Positions 19,621-62,403 of a stretch of DNA of 64,000 nt are shown here, in pieces (position 1 is the first letter of the stretch; every line of letters starts with the position of its first letter). A model generated the notes under the pieces. The model was not told where the DNA came from and made no database searches. It saw nothing but the letters and a program-made list of their open reading frames with translations. Where the stretch lies: positions 2,294,001-2,358,000 of the forward strand of contig CP089276.1 in assembly GCA_023920165.1 (NCBI GenBank). The letters run 5' to 3'. Source of the stretch: Curvularia clavata. Taxonomy: Eukaryota. The translations under genes and the position numbers were made by a program.

Positions 19621-22258
19621 GGAGCTTCGGCGACTATTTCAAGAAGGAGGCCATTGGCTTCACCTGGGAGCTGCTCACAAAAGTCTACGGCATCGACCCC
19701 AAGCGCCTCTATGTCACCTACTTTGAGGGCACTGCGGACCTCGAGCCCGATCTCGAGGCCAAGGACCTCTGGCTCAAGGCCGGTGTCCCCGAGGACCACA
19801 TCTTGCCAGGAGATATGAAGGACAACTTCTGGGAGATGGGCGACCAGGGCCCATGCGGACCTTGCTCAGAGGTGCACTATGACCTGAGAGAGCCTGAGAA
19901 CGGCCAGTACAGGAATGCGGCTTCGCTCGTCAACATGGACGACCCAGAGGTCATTGAGATCTGGAACAACGTCTTCATGCAGTACAACCGCGAACCCGAC
20001 CGATCGCTGCGGCCGCTGCCCAACAAGCACATTGATACCGGTATGGGATACGAGCGACTTGTCTCGGTGCTGCAACATAAAAAATCAAATTACGACACTG
20101 ATGTCTTTACCCCGCTGTTCCAAAGGATACAGGAGATTACTGGAGCGCGGGAATACAGGGGCAAGTTTGGTGATGAGGATCCGGATGGTATCGATACCGC
20201 CTACCGAGTCGTCGCTGACCACGTCCGAATGATGAGCTTCGCCATTGCCGACGGAGGTGTCCCGAACAATGTTGGCCGAGGCTACGTCGTACGTCGCGTG
20301 CTGCGAAGAGGCGCCCGTTATGCGCGCAAATACTTTGCCTGCGAGATTGGCGACTTCTTCTCAAAGATTGTCCCTACACTGGTCGATCAGATGGGCGACA
20401 TGTTCCCCGAAATCAGGAAGAAGCAGCAGGACATCATCGAGATCCTGGACGAGGAGGAGAAGGCTTTCGCCAAGTCGCTGGATCGTGGCGAAGTCATTTT
20501 TGAAAAGTATGCGCAAAAGGCAAAGACAAAGGGATCAGATGAGCTGCCAGGTGACGACGTTTGGCGGTTATACGATACCTACGGTTTCCCTGTCGATCTG
20601 ACTAAGCTCATGGCCGAGGAGCGGGGCTTGAAGATCAAGGACGAGGAAGTCGAGGCGGCGCAGGAAAAGGCTCGCGAAGCCAGCAAGGGCGACAAGAAGG
20701 CCGCTGGCCTCCTTGTCAAGCTTGACGTGCACGATCTCGGCGCGCTCGAAAACATGCCAGAGGTTCCCAAGACGGACGATTCCCCCAAGTACGGCCGCGA
20801 AAACATTACGGCTGTCATCAAGGCCATATATCACAACAAGAAGTTCCTCAAGAGCACGGCCGAGGTTCCAGCCGGCGAGCAATTCGGTGTCCTGCTCGAC
20901 CGTACAAACTTCTACGCCGAGCAGGGTGGTCAGGAGTACGATACCGGAAAGCTGTTGGTTGATGGAGAGGCTGAGATTAGCATCGAGAATGTACAGGTAT
21001 ACGCCGGTTATGTGCTACATACCGGTTACATCAAGTACGGAGAGCTGAGTGTAGGCAGCGAGGTCATTGCCGAGTTCGACGAGCTACGGAGACATCCTAT
21101 CCGCAACAACCACACCGGCACACACGTCCTCAACTACGCCCTTCGCGAGGTCCTCGGTAACGAAGTCGACCAAAAGGGATCGCTCGTTGCACCAGAGAAG
21201 CTACGTTTTGACTTTTCACACAAGGCTGGACTGTCAGATGCGGAGCTTGACAAGGTGGAGAGCATCTCGTCCAAGTACATCAAGGATGATGCCCAGGTAT
21301 ACGCCATGGACGTACCACTTGCGTCTGCCAAAGAAATCCGAGGTGTACGTGCCGTCTTCGGTGAGACCTACCCTGACCCAGTCCGTGTCGTCTCGGTCGG
21401 TGTGCCTGTAGAAGAGCTCCTCAAAGATGTCAAGAACGAAAAGTGGGAGAAGGTTTCAGTCGAGTTCTGCGGTGGTACCCACGTGCTCAAGACGGGCGAA
21501 ATCAAGGAACTTGTCATCCTCGAGGAATCCGGTATCGCCAAGGGCATCCGCCGTATCGTCGCAGTCACGGGCCAAGACGCATACGATGTCCAACGCATCG
21601 CCGCTGAGTTCCAACAGCGTGTGGAGAGCATGGGCAAGATGCCCTTTGGACCTCAAAAGGAAGCAGAGGCAAAGAAGATTGGCGTCGAGCTCAACAACCT
21701 CACCATCTCCGCCCTGGCAAAGAGCAAGCTCCGCGAGCAGTTCGCCAAGATCCAGAAGAGCATTCTGGACGAGCAAAAGGCTGCTGCTAAAGCAGACAAC
21801 AAGCGCGTTCTCGACGAGGTGACCAAGTTCTTTGAGGATAAGAACAACAAGTTTATGGTCAAGAAGCTCGACTGGTCGAGCAACGTCAACAAGGCTATCA
21901 GCGAGGCTATCAAGACTGTGTCTGGCCCGAAGAGCGCCTTGAAAGATCGCTCGCTCTATCTCTTTTCTGCGTCGCCCGAGGAGGGTAAGGTTGTGCATGG
22001 ATGTTATGTTAGTGAGGTAAGTCATTGTTCCCTCCTATACAAAAAAGAGTACAAGATGCTAACATGATTGAAAAACAGCCTTTCAAAAACGCAGGCGCAG
22101 ACGGCCCCAAGTGGGCATCCGCCGTCACACCTATTATCGGTGGTAAGGCCGGTGGCAAGCCTGGTGCCCAGACTGCGATTGGTCAAGGTACAAATGCGGA
22201 TAAGGTCGATGAGGGCGTCGAGGAGGCGAGGAAGTGGATTGAGGGATTCAAGATTTAG
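19084..22258 (+). CDS. ALA1: Alanyl-tRNA synthetase (cytosolic start 19240; putative mitochondrial start 19084)
   Basis: Introns 19331-19386 and 22017-22078. Motifs [50 protein letters not shown], editing NHTGTH and EFCGGTH, C-terminal GGKAGGK. Confidence 0.97.
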
Positions 22259-24660: not shown

Positions 24661-24993
24661 GGTCTGTTGGAAAAGAAGGGAAATGACCGGCGCAGCATTT
24701 TGGGGTTCAAAAGGTCATGTGTGAAGGAGGCTAAACGCTGGTCGTCATTGTGCTGGGGACTTGTTCTAGGGGCAAGAGGTGTGGCATTCGTGGTCTGGGG
24801 AAATTGCGGCCAGGGTCCAGGGACCAGCTCGCGGTTCGAGGGGCTCGCCATGCGTGCGCCTTGTGGGCTAATCTTCACAACCTATGCACACATTACAGCA
24901 TACTGACTAAAGCACACCACTTTCAAAACGGTTATGAACAGGCAAATGATATCATTTCACAACAGGCTATAAGTACAGACAACAATGCAAGCT

Positions 24994-54227: not shown

Positions 54228-57200
54228 ATGAATCCAGCGCACAGAGACGGGTGGCCGCCGGCACAGGGAGCTGTGTCTGCACAGAGTCAACCGCAGCCGG
54301 AGCAAGCGCAAGGCCAAGCGCCAGCTCCACGCCCTCTTGGTCCCTATGGGTGCGTACTTTTTTGTTTGTCCTGCCCACTATGGCAAACACAGGTGGAGAA
54401 GCTTTGAAAAGCGCCTTTTCACCATCTTTTGACTAAACACAAGCTGACAATACGAGCGATAACAGACCGAACAACGCGAGCTCACAAGCCCCACCCCATG
54501 CGTCACCTGCGCAAGGTCCAGGGCCAGTCCTTCCGCCACCGTCGGGTAGGTAGCACATGCGAACGACGCGACCCTAACGATGCTAATTTCATCATAGGCG
54601 CCGGTTATTACTCTTCAAGCGCCGCGGCTGCTCACAATCAGAACCTCCCCACGCTTCCAGGATTGACTGCGCAACCTCAGCACTCGTCGCCTCATATGTC
54701 CGCTCAGCGACCACCTTCTTCTGACGCTGCAGCGCAAGGTCACCAAGGCCCTCAGGGCCCCCCATATTCGTTACCGGGAATATCGCAAACGCTACAACAA
54801 CAGCAACAACAACAACCGCAGGCGCAATCGCAACCCCAATCGCAACAGCAGCAGCACATGCCGACTTCGGAGTCGGCGAATGCGGACAGGGAGCGAGAAA
54901 TGCGCGAGCGCGAAGCGAGAGAAAGGGAAATGGAATCGCATCCCATGCATCAGCAGGAAGATATTGTAAAGCGCGAAGCAGAGCAGCGGGACCGAGAGCT
55001 TCATGAGCGCCAGCAGCGCGAGCACGCCGCGATGCAGAATCACTCGACGCCAATGCAAATCCACCAGCCGGTTGCAGTTGCTCCGTCTGCGCGAACAATA
55101 CACGGTCCCAATGGTTTGCTTGGACAGTCTGGGCAAATGAATGGGCCAAATTCACTTGCGCCTCCAATGGGTGGCGGTCCAAACGCGTCTGGCCCCATGT
55201 ACGGTAATGCGCCTGCGCAGCACGAGCAGACGACACCCCGAATGCAGCACGCAGTACAAGCGCCGACACAAGCTCAGATGTTGATGCCCTTTGCTGGCCC
55301 TCCTGGATCCATGGCTATGGGTCAGGGACAGCAGCCGATTCTCAATGACGCATTGAGCTACCTCGACCAAGTCAAGGTGCAATTCGCGGACCACCCCGAC
55401 GTTTACAATCGATTCCTCGATATTATGAAGGATTTCAAGAGCGGTGCCATTGACACCCCCGGCGTCATCGAGAGGGTGTCGACTCTATTCGCAGGCAACC
55501 CGGCCTTGATTCAAGGATTCAACACGTTCCTCCCACCCGGCTACAAGATTGAGTGTGGTACCAATGGAGACCCGAATGCGATTCGAGTTACGACGCCCAT
55601 GGGTACTATGGTCTCGACGATGCCTGCTCCAAGACCACTTTCGCCACCAAGGAGCGGTGCTGCCAACGGTAACAATCCCCCACAGCACGATGGTGGCTAC
55701 TACGAAACTGCGCAAGGCCGACCTTGGCCTCAACAACAGAGGCCTCAAGGACCTGAGGGACAGGAAACCATGTTCTCTCCAAACAACCGCTCTTTGGGAC
55801 AGCCTTTGTATGGACCGCAGCAAGGACAACAGGGTCACCCCCCACATTCACCAGAAGTCAACTCGCGACCTCACCCTGACCCTGCTGGCCCAGGTGCCCC
55901 ACTAGCTCATCAGCAAGAGCAGAGGGGTGTTTCGCAGCTGCAGAATGCAGTCTCTGTTGCTACCGGGCGCTCGCTCATGTCGCCCAGCGTTGACGCTAAT
56001 ACACCCCAAGGGCAATCCCTGAATGGTTCTGCTCAACTCCCTCAAATGGGTGGACCCGCAGCCGAAAAACGGGGACCAGTGGAATTCAATCACGCTATCA
56101 GCTATGTCAATAAGATCAAGGTAAATGATATTTCTTCCAGGGCGGACCTACGAGCACGGACACTAACTATGGCGCAGAATCGATTTGCGGCTCATCCTGA
56201 CATCTACAAGAACTTCTTGGAGATCCTGCAGACCTACCAGCGGGAGTCGAAGCCTATTCAGGACGTATACGCGCAAGTCACGCAGTTGTTCGGCGGCGCG
56301 CCCGATCTTCTCGAAGACTTCAAACAGTTCCTGCCAGAATCTGCCGCTCATCATAGGGCACAACAACAGGCAGCTAAGAACGCTGCTGAAGATGCCGTCA
56401 TGCTCAGCAACGTGAGGGGTGAGCCGGGATATGGTGCGGCAGCAAACCAGCAAACACCTGGTCGTGCGGACACTTCGCGTTTGCCTCCCATGGGCAACTT
56501 CGCACCTACACCCACGGCGAATCGCGACAACAAGCGCAAGCGTGAGCGACAAGGACCTATAGCTGCACCTATGCCCGCACCCATGTCCCAAGAGCCGCCG
56601 ACTTCCAATGTTCGCGGTGGTTACAACCAAGTGAATGCGAACAAGGTACGTAAATGATTTCACATTCCCCTTGGCAGGGCTTGATCGGAGCATGCCGTGG
56701 TTTCTTTTTCTGCAGCACGCCCAACGCTTTTCATTCCACTTTCCATCTTTTCCTTTTTCCGAAAGCTCCACTCTCCTTCTCCTCCGCTCCTCATGGTCAC
56801 ACATGCCGCTGCGACGAGTACTATCATTGCATATGGCAGTAGCGGCGACAGGTTCCGCTTGCCTTGCGGTCTTGAGGACGCACTCTCCTTACAATTCCTC
56901 TCCCCAACTGTTTCAGACATACGTAGCAGGTCGAGCAGATCTAGCCACATCATTTTTCGCGTTTCTAAGCGACCGTTATGTTTTGAGAAGAATTTGTTTG
57001 CTGATTCATTCAAGCGTGCAAAGACCGGCCATGCTACAAAGCAGACAATTGCAGATGGCCCACCAGTCTCGCCTACCCTGACACCCGCGCTGCCTGAACC
57101 GATCCCACCTACGACAACAACTACTCCCAGCCAAGATGAGCTTGCCTTCTTTGATCGCGTGAAGAAGTTCATTGGAAACAAGAACACCATGAACGAATTC

Positions 57201-59720
57201 TTGAAGCTTTGCAATCTCTACTCGCAGGATCTGATTGACAAGCAATTACTGCTCTATCGTGCACAGTCCTTCATCGGCGGTAACCAGGAACTCTTTGCAT
57301 GGTTCAAGAAGTTCATGGGTGAGGACGACGAACAACAAAAGTCGCGCCCCAAGACTGTCAACTCTCGTGTCTCGCTATCCAACTGCCGGAGCCTGGGTCC
57401 TAGCTATCGTCTTCTTCCTAGGCGCGAACGAGAACGCGTATGCAGTGGACGTGACGAGCTTTGCCGGTCTGTCTTGAACGATGAATGGGCTTCTCATCCA
57501 ACATGGGCTTCGGAAGATTCGGGCTTCGTTGCTCATCGCAAGAACACGTTTGAAGAGGGCCTGCACCGGATTGAAGAGGAACGCCATGACTATGACTTCA
57601 ACATCGAGGCTTGCAGTCGCACAATTCAGCAGCTCGAACCCATCGCCAACCAGCTACTCACAATGAAGCCCGAAGACAGGATTGGGTTCACTTTGCCTCC
57701 CGGGCTTGGAGGACAGAGCGAGACAATCTACAAGCGTGTCATCATGAAGATCTATGGTCGTGAGAGGGGTAAAGATGTCATCAAGGAGCTTTTCCAGATG
57801 CCCTGGAGTGTGGTTCCAGTCCTCCTTCATCGGTTGAAAACGAAACTGGAAGACTGGAAGGCTGCTCAGCGAGAATGGGAGAAGGTCTGGCGTGATCAGA
57901 CTCAGAAGATCTTCTGGAAGTCACTGGATCACCAAAGCATCACAGTCAAGCAGGCCGACAAGCGACAGTTTCAGCCCAAATCGCTCACCAACGAGATCCA
58001 GGTTCGCTACGAAGAGCAGAAGCGTCTCCAACAGATTCAGGAAATATCACAGCCCGACTATCAGTTTGCCTTCTCCTTCAAGGATGAAGAGGTGCTGTTC
58101 GATGTGGCTCGTATGATGCTTACTTTTGCCGACAACAGCACGGGCGCTGAGTTTGCAAAGGTCGTGCCTTTCATCAGAGAGTTTGTCCCCCTCTTCTTTG
58201 GCATAGACTCGGCCAAGTTTGAGCAGCGGGTACACACTTCCGGACGCGAGACGCCCAATGATTCCGGTGAGGACACTCCCTCACCAGACGAAGATGTCTC
58301 TCAGCGTTCGTTGAAGACAAAGAAAGGTGACCTTCGCCGCGATGTTCTCGACCCCCGCAGTAAGTCCCGGAAAGACAAGGAAGATAGCACAGCCTCTGCC
58401 AGCCGGGATAGCACGCCAGACAACTCGATGGAAGACGAGGCCGCTGCCGACAGCTCCAATTCCATTCCGCGCGGAGATCGACCAGCTAGTCATTGGGTGG
58501 AATATGCCGCTACCCCAACTGCCTTTGGAGACAAGGAATTTGAGCACGAAGAGCCTTACCGTCGGGTGGAGTACAACATGTACGCCAATGCCTCGATTTA
58601 CTGCTTCTTCCGCATGTTTGTGATGCTCTACGAGAGGCTGTTGAAGCTCAAGGAGAGTGAGGAAGAAGTACAGAGGCTTGTCATGCGCGCAAAGGAGCCC
58701 AAGGCAGCGCAGAAGCTCAAAATGCTTGACAAGCAGCCTGAAGACTTCTTCAAGGACACTTCGCCTACAGCAAACTACTACCAGCAAGTTCTTGATATGT
58801 TCCACGACCAGATTACTGGAGACATTGAGATGAGCTTCATCGAGGAGACGTTGCGCCGATACTATCTGCAAATAGGCTGGCAGTTGTATTCATTCGACAG
58901 GCTGCTCAGCTCACTGGTTCGATTTGCTCTTGTCGTTGTAAGCCAGGATAGCAAGGACAAGAGCCTTGACATCTACAACCTGTTCAGAAAGGACCGAGTC
59001 AATGATACTACCACGCACAAGAGCGAGATTGCTTACCGAAAAGCTGTTGAGAAGTTTGCTAAGGATGCAGACACATACCGCATTACCTATGTAAGTAATA
59101 GCTACTCTGTTGCCAGCCACGACATACTGATATTCCGACAGGATCCTGCCAAGATGGAAGCATATGTCCGGTTGTTCAAGAAGGACGACCCCACCTTCGA
59201 ATTCAATACGCTGGACCGAGTCAAGCGCTGGCGGGCATACGTCGCCTCGTACATGGCTGTCGAGCCCACTGAAGAGGTTGATCTATCGCGCGTCAACTAC
59301 CCCTACTTGAAGAAGCGCCTGGCGAAGGCCGAAGGCCTTTCCGAAGATGATCGTTTCGACCAGGTTCAGCACGATGACAAGATTACTGTTTCTATCAGTC
59401 CTGCTGCCTATGTCATGACGTTCATCAATAGCGAGCCTTTTGGTACGGGTGGTGTACAATACTTCCTCCAGCCAGACTCTGTGCGCGCAGGTGTCAGTGA
59501 GTCAGTTCCCAAGCCTAGCGAGGAGTACAAGAGGCTCAACGATGAGCGTCGAGAGAGGGTCCAAGAGATTCTCGTCAGGAACAACAGCTGGATGAAGGAT
59601 CTCAGTCGTGATGAAGTGGAGGCTAAAAAGACGGCTTTCAAAAAGGACATGGAAGAGCCCAGGAAGGTGGCCGACGACGAGGATGTGGATATGGATGGCG
59701 CAGACGGGTTCGCGTACTAA
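54228..59720 (+). CDS. SIN3: Sin3 histone-deacetylase co-repressor scaffold
   Basis: Introns 54350-54465, 54546-54597, 56121-56177, 56646-57014 and 59091-59141. PAH1 DALSYLDQVK, PAH2 VEFNHAISYVNKIKNRF, PAH3 ELAFFDRVKK, and HID GPSYRLLP..CSGRDELC..VLNDEW. Confidence 0.95.
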
Positions 59721-60039
59721 CATGTCTGTGTTCCGCGTTGGTGTGTCATTGGAGATTTGGCGGCAGCGTTTGGTCCTCGGCGTTGCGGGCTTGGATGTCC
59801 CACTGCGACGGGTTGATTTGACTTAATGATCTTCACATCACGCGCATGGAGAGGGTTGGCGTACAGCACATGGCCTACGTGCACAGCATAGCACTTCCTT
59901 TGCGTTCCTGGGGACTGGTGTTTGGTGTGGTGTTCCGGATGATAACCCGACTCATCTATGGTTCATTTGTGTAATTTAGTGTCTTTCTCTCAATTTACAT
60001 TTTGCATTCAAGCCTCTTCCTTTCTTCATCCTGACGTAG

Positions 60040-60732
60040 TCATTTGACGTTCTTGGCCAGCCACTCCTCCCACTGCTCTACAGTCCAACTGCTACTAATG
60101 TCATTATTTACAATACCATCAAATACCACCGTCGGCGTCACATGCACTCCCGTCATACGGTTTGCCTTGACCTGCACTTTCACATCATTCGTAACCCCAT
60201 TCCCAGAATTTAAACTTCCGTCCTCACCCGGCTTGTCGCTTATCTCCAACAAGCCATACACTTTTTCCTCATCGACACCCACACTTCCCGCTACCTTGGC
60301 CAGTCGCCTATACGTCTGGTTCCTCGTCTCATTCACTACGCTCACGTCGAAGAAGTCCTTTTGCTGCTCAAACAACTTCTGGGAGAAGTCCCAGAACTTG
60401 GTGCTGTCAATTTTTTGCACGGCGTAGGCTGCCTCGTGGACGAGGGTGGAGGAGGGGTGCCAGGGTTGAATTTGCTGACGGAAGATGGTGACGACGCGGT
60501 CGTTGTAGGTGGAGAGGAGGGTGTTGCGGAGTGGAGTGGTGAAGACGGTTTTGAAGAGTTTGGCAGAGAAGGGACAGACGTAGTCCAGGTCTGTGGGTTG
60601 GAGGGGTGAGTTTGGATACATGGAGAGGGGAAAAAAGGGTGTATGCTTACAGATTTCAAGGGTATGAACGGCTTTTGGCTGAATGGAGGCTGAGGCTAGC
60701 TTTTGGCCTGCGAATTTGGGTGCGAGAGCCAT
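60040..60732 (-). CDS. DsbA/thioredoxin-like fold protein (monothiol CPFS)
   Basis: Intron 60650-60591 restores HTLEIYLDYVCPFSAK. Also has QIQPWHPSS and the cis-Pro loop GVHVTPTV. Confidence 0.88.
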   Translation of the reverse strand: MALAPKFAGQKLASASIQPKAVHTLEICKHTPFFPLSMYPNSPLQPTDLDYVCPFSAKLFKTVFTTPLRNTLLSTYNDRVVTIFRQQIQPWHPSSTLVHEAAYAVQKIDSTKFWDFSQKLFEQQKDFFDVSVVNETRNQTYRRLAKVAGSVGVDEEKVYGLLEISDKPGEDGSLNSGNGVTNDVKVQVKANRMTGVHVTPTVVFDGIVNNDISSSWTVEQWEEWLAKNVK

Positions 60733-61136
60733 TTGTGCAGTTTAAGATGTGGGATGGAAATGGGTAGGTGGAATTGAAGGGGCTTCGAAAGACGAGTATG
60801 ATAAGGAAGAATGGAATGTCGGGCGTATATATCACACAGAGAAAAAGCACGCAATTGTAGGATGAGCTATCAGATGCTGGGAGCTTCGGGTATGACGACA
60901 GTCGGTCCGGTAGCAATCGACATGTGATATCCCGAAGCCATTGGGAATACCGAGAACAGAATGACTAAGAAATGAATGGTCTGGGCCATTTCTAGGCTTT
61001 TCGTAAATTCATAGTACTTGTGAATTTACTAGAGAAACGAAATCTATAGCCTGGGAAATAAGGCGTCAATTGAGACTTTCCCACAGCCTAGAGAGTAGCG
61101 TGCCCCTCCCCCACTTTGTCCACATAGGTACGCCCA

Positions 61137-61182
61137 AAGCTCCAAGCTCCAAGCTCCAAGCTCCAAGCTCCAAGCTCCAAGC
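61137..61182. repeat. Heptanucleotide tandem repeat (TCCAAGC)6 plus a partial unit
   Basis: Six perfect copies at 61141-61182, in the divergent promoter region. Confidence 0.95.
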
Positions 61183-61290: not shown

Positions 61291-62403
61291 ATGCCTGATC
61301 CCAATTCTGCCGACGATGATCTCCTCGCCCGTCTCAACGCGCTCAAAAAGTCCTCTGTTAGTTTAGATACCAACTACAGCGCCTCCATAGCACCTGCAGA
61401 CCCGCCCAGAGCTACCGACGATCTTGCGGCACGATTTGCACGCTTAGGCTCTGCATCGCCTGCATCGTCTCCAAAGCCACGAGCAGAGGGCAAGAGTTAT
61501 ACAACTGCACCGACGGTAGCCCCAGGTGCACCGAGCTATCTTGAAGGCGTAGCTCAGAGTGTTGGTGGCTCTAATGTCGAATTCAATGATGAGGATGAGA
61601 AGAGCCTGGAAGAATTGCTGGGCGAATTGAACGACACTGTTGGGGAAAGAAAGGACTGGGATGTAACCAAGCAGGAACAACAAGATGTTGGGAAGCTCCT
61701 TAAAGATATGCGCAGAATACTACCAGAAGTGGTCAACAGTCGCGCCCAAGGACAAGGTGATCTTGATAAAGCAGAGAGGTCGGCGGATTGGGAGAGTATT
61801 GAAGTCAATGTTGGGGGTGGAGAAGTTGACGCAAAGCAAAACACCGACGATGAAGTAGACGAAGAAGGTAAAAAGAAGACTGAAGATGATGAGGCCGACG
61901 ACATTATTGCAAAAGTCATGGCGGAGCTTGAAATTAGCAAGAAATACGACGATCCTTCCTCTCCTACATCAGAAAACGAAACGCCAGGCTCAGGGGACAA
62001 GGAGACTCAGAATGACACTGCAGATGGTGCCCTGAATCTTCCTTCAGCACCACAAGACCTGCCCGTTTATGATACCACCATTGAAGACCACTTCACCGCC
62101 CGTCTAGCCGCACTCGCCGCACCATTCCAATCAGACCCCCTTGGCCTCCCCTCTGCGCCATCATTTGCCCCTAGAAACAAGCCGCCCGTGTCAACGAATC
62201 TGCAAAAGAAGATTGACGACGAGGTTGATACGTGGTGCATCATTTGCCAAGACGATGCAACACTCAAGTGCCTGGGCTGCGACAACGACTTGTACTGTCA
62301 GAACTGCTGGATGGAGGGTCATCGGGGTGAGAGTGCTGGCTTCGAAGAAAGACGACACAAAGCTGTTTTGTACTCGAAGAAGAAACCACAGGCTGCTGCG
62401 TGA
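61291..62403 (+). CDS. ZFYVE19/ANCHR-like protein with C-terminal B-box-type zinc finger, no FYVE domain
   Basis: Intronless ORF. WCIICQDDATLKCLGCDNDLYCQNCWMEGH..H, with an acidic central region. Confidence 0.75.
   Translation: MPDPNSADDDLLARLNALKKSSVSLDTNYSASIAPADPPRATDDLAARFARLGSASPASSPKPRAEGKSYTTAPTVAPGAPSYLEGVAQSVGGSNVEFNDEDEKSLEELLGELNDTVGERKDWDVTKQEQQDVGKLLKDMRRILPEVVNSRAQGQGDLDKAERSADWESIEVNVGGGEVDAKQNTDDEVDEEGKKKTEDDEADDIIAKVMAELEISKKYDDPSSPTSENETPGSGDKETQNDTADGALNLPSAPQDLPVYDTTIEDHFTARLAALAAPFQSDPLGLPSAPSFAPRNKPPVSTNLQKKIDDEVDTWCIICQDDATLKCLGCDNDLYCQNCWMEGHRGESAGFEERRHKAVLYSKKKPQAAA

Follow-up and report, generated by a model that had tools for sequence, protein, structure and literature searches.

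A putative UGA-CUA readthrough extension with a PTS1-like end on a fungal DsbA-like protein

Introduction

The window, by which is meant the whole 64-kb stretch of DNA analysed here, carries on its minus strand a gene for a DsbA-like protein. Its reading frame stops at TGA followed by CTA and, were that stop read through, would run on to a PTS1-like Cys-Lys-Met (CKM). Here, it is proposed that readthrough of UGA CUA would generate a minor isoform ending in CKM, which would be imported via Pex5, with the bulk of the protein staying in the cytosol. From the comparison of sequences, this proposal taken as a whole is rated quite likely. Part of the DsbA-like protein is probably sent into peroxisomes.

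To date, most fungal cases of functional stop-codon readthrough concern glycolytic and NAD(P)-linked enzymes. The same signature now appears in a protein with a thiol-redox fold, across several classes of filamentous ascomycetes that include many plant-associated genera. This would give the family a first functional lead, namely peroxisomal redox chemistry. It would also offer a well-conserved test case in which weak, non-canonical PTS1 ends (GRL, PRL, xKM) are combined with low readthrough. For gene annotation, the implication would be that an isoform is being missed in hundreds of genomes.

The gene and its two stops

The minus-strand 3' end of the gene reads AAG AAC GTC AAA TGA CTA CGT CAG GAT GAA GAA AGG AAG AGG CTT GAA TGC AAA ATG TAA. 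The first-pass annotation had reported a TGA-CTA with an in-frame tail at this place, and its letters and coordinates agreed exactly when the window was read again. The gene has two exons; at 210 codons it matches most orthologs in length, and its N-terminus in exon 1, MALAPKFAGQKL..., agrees with theirs (Table 1).

Table 1. Features of the DsbA-like gene and its putative extension, in window coordinates
Feature	Position	Strand	Basis or remark
Exon 1, DsbA-like gene	60651..60732	-	ATG 60732-60730; 27 codons plus 1 base
Intron, 60 nt, GT..AG on minus strand	60591..60650	-	Joint in contigs of X1, X5, X15, X10
Exon 2, rest of 210-aa Thioredoxin_4/DsbA-like protein	60043..60590	-	Translation, homologs; CPFS near exon start; C-terminal helix ...EQWEEWLAKNVK
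Putative leaky stop context TGA CTA	60037..60042	-	Sequence; TGA 60042-60040, CTA 60039-60037
In-frame putative readthrough extension, 14 codons, LRQDEERKRLECKM	59998..60039	-	Sequence; length and second-stop column as in locus L001
PTS1-like tripeptide Cys-Lys-Met	59998..60006	-	Aligns with GRL (L001/L004) and FKM (L022); fits consensus [SAC][KRH][LM]
Second stop TAA	59995..59997	-	Sequence

Contigs from four public runs (X1, X5, X15 and X10) join position 60651 to 60590 and skip 60591-60650. Because the 60-nt intron has been removed, these contigs are taken to derive from RNA, an origin read from that removal alone. The intron is the only joint in the contigs of the four runs; contigs, of course, drop rare forms. 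Spliced contigs from three studies give unbroken cover of 59300-60590, the extension included. This cover is not proof that the DsbA-like mRNA reaches 59995, because the convergent Sin3 transcript may supply RNA there, and contigs carry no information on transcript end, strand or level. Across 59835-60409, runs X1, X5 and X15 have zero differences from the window.

The DsbA-like gene had also been singled out as the sole complete gene of the window to stop at TGA CTA. By a rough check, no other ORF of at least 250 codons ends in this way, and two shorter frames, which may or may not be genes, end likewise. In numbers, 194 stop-to-stop ORFs in the 64-kb window reach 100 codons, and 3 of them close on TGA CTA. 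One of the other two, at 20599-20601 (+), closes a 121-codon ORF. The second, at 24904-24906 (+), closes a 100-codon ORF whose extension would end ...HNRL; this ORF may be a spurious frame, because a 380-codon minus-strand ORF ends nearby (stop 24996-24994).

A single-cysteine DsbA-like protein

With exon 2 as the query, 1933 homologs were found at E<=0.001 among 1966 candidates. The top homolog, P0001, has 210 aa and is 97% identical; the best named homologs are from Pleosporales (Alternaria, Bipolaris, Stemphylium), at 87-88% identity. A Pfam search with exon 2 alone gives no match at E<=0.1. At full length, P0001 reaches 29.2 bits against Thioredoxin_4 (PF13462), above the cut-off of 23.2 bits, and 15.9 bits against DSBA (PF01323; GST kappa/DSBA), below the cut-off of 25.6.

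A profile of 35 orthologs matches PDB 3gn3 (2.7e-10), S. aureus DsbA and BdbD. The AlphaFold (AF2) model of P0001, made from 50 aligned orthologs (pLDDT 85.6), is a thioredoxin fold with a helical insertion. When this model is used in Foldseek, the best matches are 3gn3, MdbA, BdbD and S. aureus DsbA (E 1e-9 to 2e-7; target TM 0.63-0.77). The PF13462 match, the profile matches, the model and the PDB matches all bear out the earlier label of the protein as DsbA-like with a thioredoxin fold.

The active site reads C-P-F-S and is invariant in the 50 aligned orthologs; the CxxC of DsbA-type oxidases is absent. A regular expression applied to 150 distant representatives located the active-site motif in 76, with CPFS in 56, CPYS in 9, and a second Cys in 3. 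With a single active-site cysteine, the protein is DsbA-like but no CxxC disulfide oxidase.

By eye, no signal peptide is visible in the N-terminus (MALAPKF...) and no PTS2-like N-terminal motif in MALAPKFAGQKLASASIQPK.... The native C-terminus lies at one position in all intact orthologs (...EQWEEWL.KN[VI]x), and a native PTS1-like C-terminal tripeptide is found in 0 of 223 close homologs.

The tails of orthologous loci

A scan of metagenome contigs with the ortholog alignment gave 248 stretches coding for a relative; the 80 best among them were used. The C-terminus could be aligned in 79 of these 80 loci. They yield 62 distinct tails of 63 nt, each read on from the homologous stop. PTS1 ends are described by three patterns: [SAC][KRH][LM], [STAGCN][RKH][LIVMAFY] and x[KR][LM].

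In frame 0 (61 tails), these patterns are matched, in that order, by 9, 22 and 28 tails. The corresponding counts are 1, 2 and 3 in frame +1 (62 tails), and 0, 0 and 1 in frame +2 (60 tails). Among 11,628 shuffled tails the rates are 0.35%, 2.0% and 1.5%, the first of these being the rate before a TGA CTA context is required as well. The x-[KR]-[LM] ends that are seen include GRL, SKL, SRL, ARL, PRL and KM types.

The PTS1-type end goes with the stop context. The first-pass annotation had suggested that the 3' ends of orthologs be aligned for TGA CTx together with an in-frame PTS1-type end, and the outcome is positive in several fungal classes. TGA CT is present in 29 of the 61 distinct tails, and 25 of these 29 have an x[KR][LM] end, versus 3 of the 32 tails with TAA, TAG or another TGA context (Fisher 6.5e-10, a value uncorrected for the relatedness of the sequences). 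The four TGA-CT tails without such an end close on AML, SKI, ASL and ARQ.

These counts do not represent independent events, because the loci are mutually related and represent the 80 most similar of 248 stretches. Given this kinship, they were also grouped at 80% protein identity, which gives 30 groups. Six consist purely of loci with TGA-CT and an x[KR][LM] end, and two mixed groups include such members. Three have TGA-CT with a different end (SKI, ASL, ARQ), two have an x[KR][LM] end following TGA TTA or TGA CCC, and 17 have neither feature. Locus L077, which reads TGA CTT and then LEGSKL, is counted among the 30 groups and left out of the 61-tail counts. In these sequences, stop context and PTS1-type end are conserved phylogenetically, which is the criterion used in PMC4207609. 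Only a quick tree was made, with weak backbone support and with 15 intron-containing loci left out; no order of events is drawn from it.

Spread of the feature among fungi

The loci were placed by their nearest named protein relatives, and four classes are covered on this basis. Alternaria-like loci have extensions that end in GRL and GKL. The ends are SKL, TKL and AML in Ophiobolus- and Parastagonospora-like loci, SKL and SRL in Didymellaceae-like loci, and GRL in Lentithecium-like loci. Aureobasidium-like loci have the extensions LGDSKL and LEGSKL, and Cladosporium-like loci end in SRL and PRL. Outside these, a Cadophora-like extension (Leotiomycetes) ends ...MKGRL; Knufia/Exophiala-like loci (Eurotiomycetes) end in NRM and YKM, with ARL after TGA TTA; and a Microdochium-like extension (Sordariomycetes) ends in TSKI. 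The canonical ends SKL, SRL and ARL occur in five separate groups.

The feature is absent from loci nearest to Lecanoromycetes, Thermoascus, Xylona and Exophiala xenobiotica, and from several without a close named relative. Loci that lack it mostly have TAA, TAG or another context.

Extension length varies from 6 to 19 aa, and no alignment of the interiors between groups is possible. Even the Alternaria-like loci have variants of 14, 12 and 11 aa, with frame and end kept in all of them. Many extensions from different classes have in common the start L-x-[D/E/G]-G. In L012 and L044/L075, CU has been lost (TGA TTG, TGA TTA), yet the first extension codon is Leu, as in the window (60037-60039), and the extension retains a PTS1-like end (PRL, ARL). 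For the Leu first codon and the L-x-[D/E/G]-G start, a linker, shared ancestry or a longer readthrough context may be the reason.

Some loci differ in their introns. An extra intron follows directly after ...PTV[VL]FN in L056, L058-L061, L064, L066-L068, L070, L072, L077 and L079. In most of these tblastn passed straight through, because the length of the intron is a multiple of three; that of L077 is not, and there the match ended at residue 157. L056, L058 and L059 have another intron further upstream, and L037-39 have introns elsewhere.

The CKM tail of this gene

How, then, does the tail in the window compare with those of its relatives? In the nucleotide alignment, GAA TGC AAA ATG TAA in the window occupies the columns of AAG GGA AGA TTG TAA in L004 and AAA GGA AGG TTG TGA in L001. 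ECKM-stop therefore aligns column for column with the Alternaria-like KGRL-stop, with class kept at the last two positions only. There, K replaces R and M replaces L, and the ten residues before differ freely. The nearest sequence that also has K-M-stop is L022 (protein identity 79%), which closes with ...TTC AAA ATG TAA and has Phe at -3. Selection on the last residues would be expected to leave just such a pattern, with conservative change in the last two and free change upstream.

One other history of this tail was considered, in which it once ended ...KRL and then lost a stop. It is ruled out, as the second stop stands in the same column as in the Alternaria-like loci.

CKM fits the consensus [SAC][KRH][LM] but is a doubly sub-optimal PTS1, with Glu at -4. 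Glu at this position is unfavourable for a PTS1 and may weaken this one; the RKR further upstream may favour Pex5 binding.

About 40 nt past the second stop lies a 23-nt block, ATAGATGAGTCGGGTTATCATCC (59937-59959, minus strand), that is common to L002, L004 and L022, where its flanks have diverged. The block lies between convergent genes and may be part of the 3' UTR of either the DsbA-like or the Sin3 gene.

Distant members of the family

When 1.84 billion representatives were searched with a profile, 1430 matched at E<=0.001, and the best 150 of these were examined. The C-terminal helix is intact in 77 of these 150. Of these 77 proteins, 6 end natively in SKL, AKL, SHL or ARL, versus a rate of 0.38% for internal tripeptides in the same proteins. 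Savitreella ends natively in AKL and the dinoflagellate Oxyrrhis marina in ARL. A Candida tropicalis representative, which is outside the 77, ends natively ...FASKL. Other named clusters include Mortierella, with NKL, and Pycnococcus, with PRL.

One protein in the 90%-identity cluster around P0362, the Candida tropicalis homolog, carries the label of an 'Asgard group archaeon' metagenome-assembled genome; the bin is probably contaminated with yeast.

A broader idea may be put forward tentatively, as possible rather than probable. Here, the eukaryote-wide CPFS DsbA-like family would be an unrecognised thiol-redox enzyme of the peroxisomal matrix. Its members with native SKL, AKL or ARL (yeast-like, protist) would be fully peroxisomal. 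The ancestor of the filamentous ascomycetes would have put a leaky UGA-CU before the tag, thereby fixing the ratio of cytosolic to peroxisomal protein, and the arrangement would later have been lost in many lineages. The L-x-[D/E/G]-G start shared by the extensions hints at one ancient event.

Neighbouring genes

The DsbA-like gene is convergent with a gene for a Sin3 co-repressor (56685-59720, plus strand; PAH, Sin3_corepress and Sin3a_C domains), whose stop is at 59720. On its other side, it is divergent from a gene for an ANCHR-like protein with a B-box zinc domain (61291-62403, plus strand). Between these divergent genes stands a perfect heptamer repeat, (AAGCTCC) x 6.6, at 61137-61182, just upstream of the ends of the spliced contigs (~61010-61030).

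The contig of run X1 extends ~280-300 nt upstream of the ATG. It has 19 differences from the window in the 350 bases of 60651-61000, and 1 in 59300-60590. This suggests that the DsbA-like gene has a long 5' leader that is unusually variable.

How the extension might be made

The proposed mechanism starts from a cytosolic 210-aa single-cysteine (CPFS) DsbA-like protein whose UGA would lie in a weak-termination context, UGA CUA. There, a minor fraction of ribosomes would decode the UGA via a near-cognate tRNA, and this readthrough would add 14 residues that end in Cys-Lys-Met. The CKM end would serve as a weak PTS1 bound by Pex5. The Pex5 pathway would, in turn, import the minor isoform into the peroxisomal matrix; the bulk would remain cytosolic. 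In peroxisomes, the isoform may have a thiol-redox or glutathione-dependent role.

According to the available part of PMC4207609, UGA CU is sufficient for readthrough in Ustilago maydis and in HeLa cells, UAA and UAG are less leaky, and the residue placed at UGA can be Trp, Arg, Cys or Ser.

The RNA after the stop folds no better than its shuffles (z +1.08), and 180 of the 200 shuffled versions equal or surpass it. An Rfam search of 59400-60200 at E<=1 finds no SECIS. Its single match is a sub-threshold one to a plant-virus pseudoknot family, on the opposite strand at 59434-59459 (E 0.082; 23.9 bits versus a cut-off of 38 bits). As neither a SECIS nor a stable RNA structure is found, readthrough would rest on the short context alone, and would thus be low. 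Low readthrough, of course, fits a minor peroxisomal pool.

Alternative explanations

The alternative that survives best accepts the feature as real in the family but holds that the tail has decayed in this species, so that CKM after Glu is no PTS1 and the protein is purely cytosolic. Such decay would account for the departure of CKM from the GRL, SKL and SRL of its relatives. It would also be in line with the loss of the feature in whole lineages, and with two Pleosporales relatives (one, L024, has TGA TGA; the other, L013/L014, has TGA GTC and no PTS1). However, TGA CTA, the frame and the exact position of the second stop have all been retained, the changes from R to K and from L to M remain within PTS1 classes, and L022 keeps K-M-stop too. 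The strains in X1, X5 and X15 are without difference across 59835-60409. Further, CKM> is given among the PTS1-like ends of plant monodehydroascorbate reductases (MDARs) in the available part of PMC8615211. Decay is therefore considered unlikely, and a CKM end that still functions as a weak PTS1 is preferred.

The extension might also be produced by other means, either by A-to-I editing of UGA to UGG or by a rare alternative splice that removes the stop. A-to-I editing prefers U before the edited A; here, the base is G. There are fungal precedents for both routes, in that stop-loss A-to-I editing exists in Fusarium (PMC13123824, as far as available) and cryptic PTS1 isoforms of GAPDH and PGK are made by splicing in fungi (PMC3798809, likewise in part). 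Neither, however, needs CT after TGA or frame 0, and it is to these that the extension is tied. For splicing, the 60-nt intron is the sole joint in the contigs of the four runs, even if contigs lose rare forms. Both routes are accordingly seen as very improbable beside readthrough in the UGA CUA context.

A different role for the x-[KR]-[LM] end can be imagined, for example as a degron or a C-terminal recognition signal that marks readthrough products. GRL, PRL, FKM, YKM and HKL do lie outside the strict [SAC][KRH][LM], which only 9 of the 61 tails fit. This makes it understandable that another role should be considered, but such a role would not lead one to expect canonical SKL, SRL and ARL in five separate groups, or native SKL, AKL or ARL in distant homologs. 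It is given little credence, and the ends are better read as PTS1-type signals.

Finally, pure chance, by which a whole genome could yield one gene that combines TGA CTA with a loose PTS1 match, and a UGA read as selenocysteine, which the thiol-redox fold might bring to mind, are hardly credible in view of the conservation seen in 8 of the 30 identity groups, the lack of a SECIS at E<=1 in 59400-60200, and the statement in the available part of PMC4207609 that fungi lack the selenocysteine machinery.

Relation to known systems

Readthrough-derived cryptic PTS1 isoforms were reportedly described by Freitag in 2012, as cited in reviews. Those derived by readthrough of UGA CU(A) include Tpi1, Pgk1, Art1 and Rpe1 of U. 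maydis and human LDHB and MDH1 (Stiebler 2014, PMC4207609, in the part available). In Table S2 and all 7 supplements of that paper, as available, the terms thioredoxin, DsbA, disulfide and isomerase bring up only triosephosphate isomerase. Reviews name PGK, TPI and GAPDH in fungi, and the word 'thioredoxin' is absent from their available text (PMC9549241, PMC3798809). Among the papers listed, none was found that ties the DsbA-like/PF13462 family to readthrough or to peroxisomes, in a search that lay outside subscription papers and bioRxiv supplements. Thus, the UGA-CU readthrough/PTS1 mechanism is known, and its occurrence in the DsbA-like family is, with no paper found, apparently undescribed.

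The present case resembles the readthrough PTS1 isoforms of U. maydis and man in that UGA is followed by CU, the in-frame extension is short, and only its C-terminal PTS1-type tripeptide is conserved. In both, too, the feature is patchy among species, and some relatives have a native PTS1. In place of a glycolytic or NAD(P)-linked enzyme, the cargo here is a protein with a DsbA-like thiol-redox fold, and many ends are non-canonical (GRL, PRL, xKM).

With the bacterial DsbA, BdbD and MdbA proteins (PDB 3gn3, 3eu4, 5c00, 3bci), the protein has in common a thioredoxin fold with a helical insertion. It differs from them in that identity is ~20%, the active site is CPFS and not CxxC, the protein is eukaryotic, and no signal peptide is seen by eye.

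Another comparable system is mammalian GST kappa 1 / DsbA-L. This DsbA-fold protein has been reported in peroxisomes, and it too joins a DsbA-type fold to peroxisomes and antioxidant function, in the available part of PMC10458997. The fungal protein differs from GST kappa 1 in that its PF01323 score, taken on P0001, is below the cut-off and no GST kappa chain is among the Foldseek matches listed. The PTS1 of GSTK1 is native and not derived by readthrough, whereas the PTS1-like end of the fungal protein would be reached only when UGA CUA is read through.
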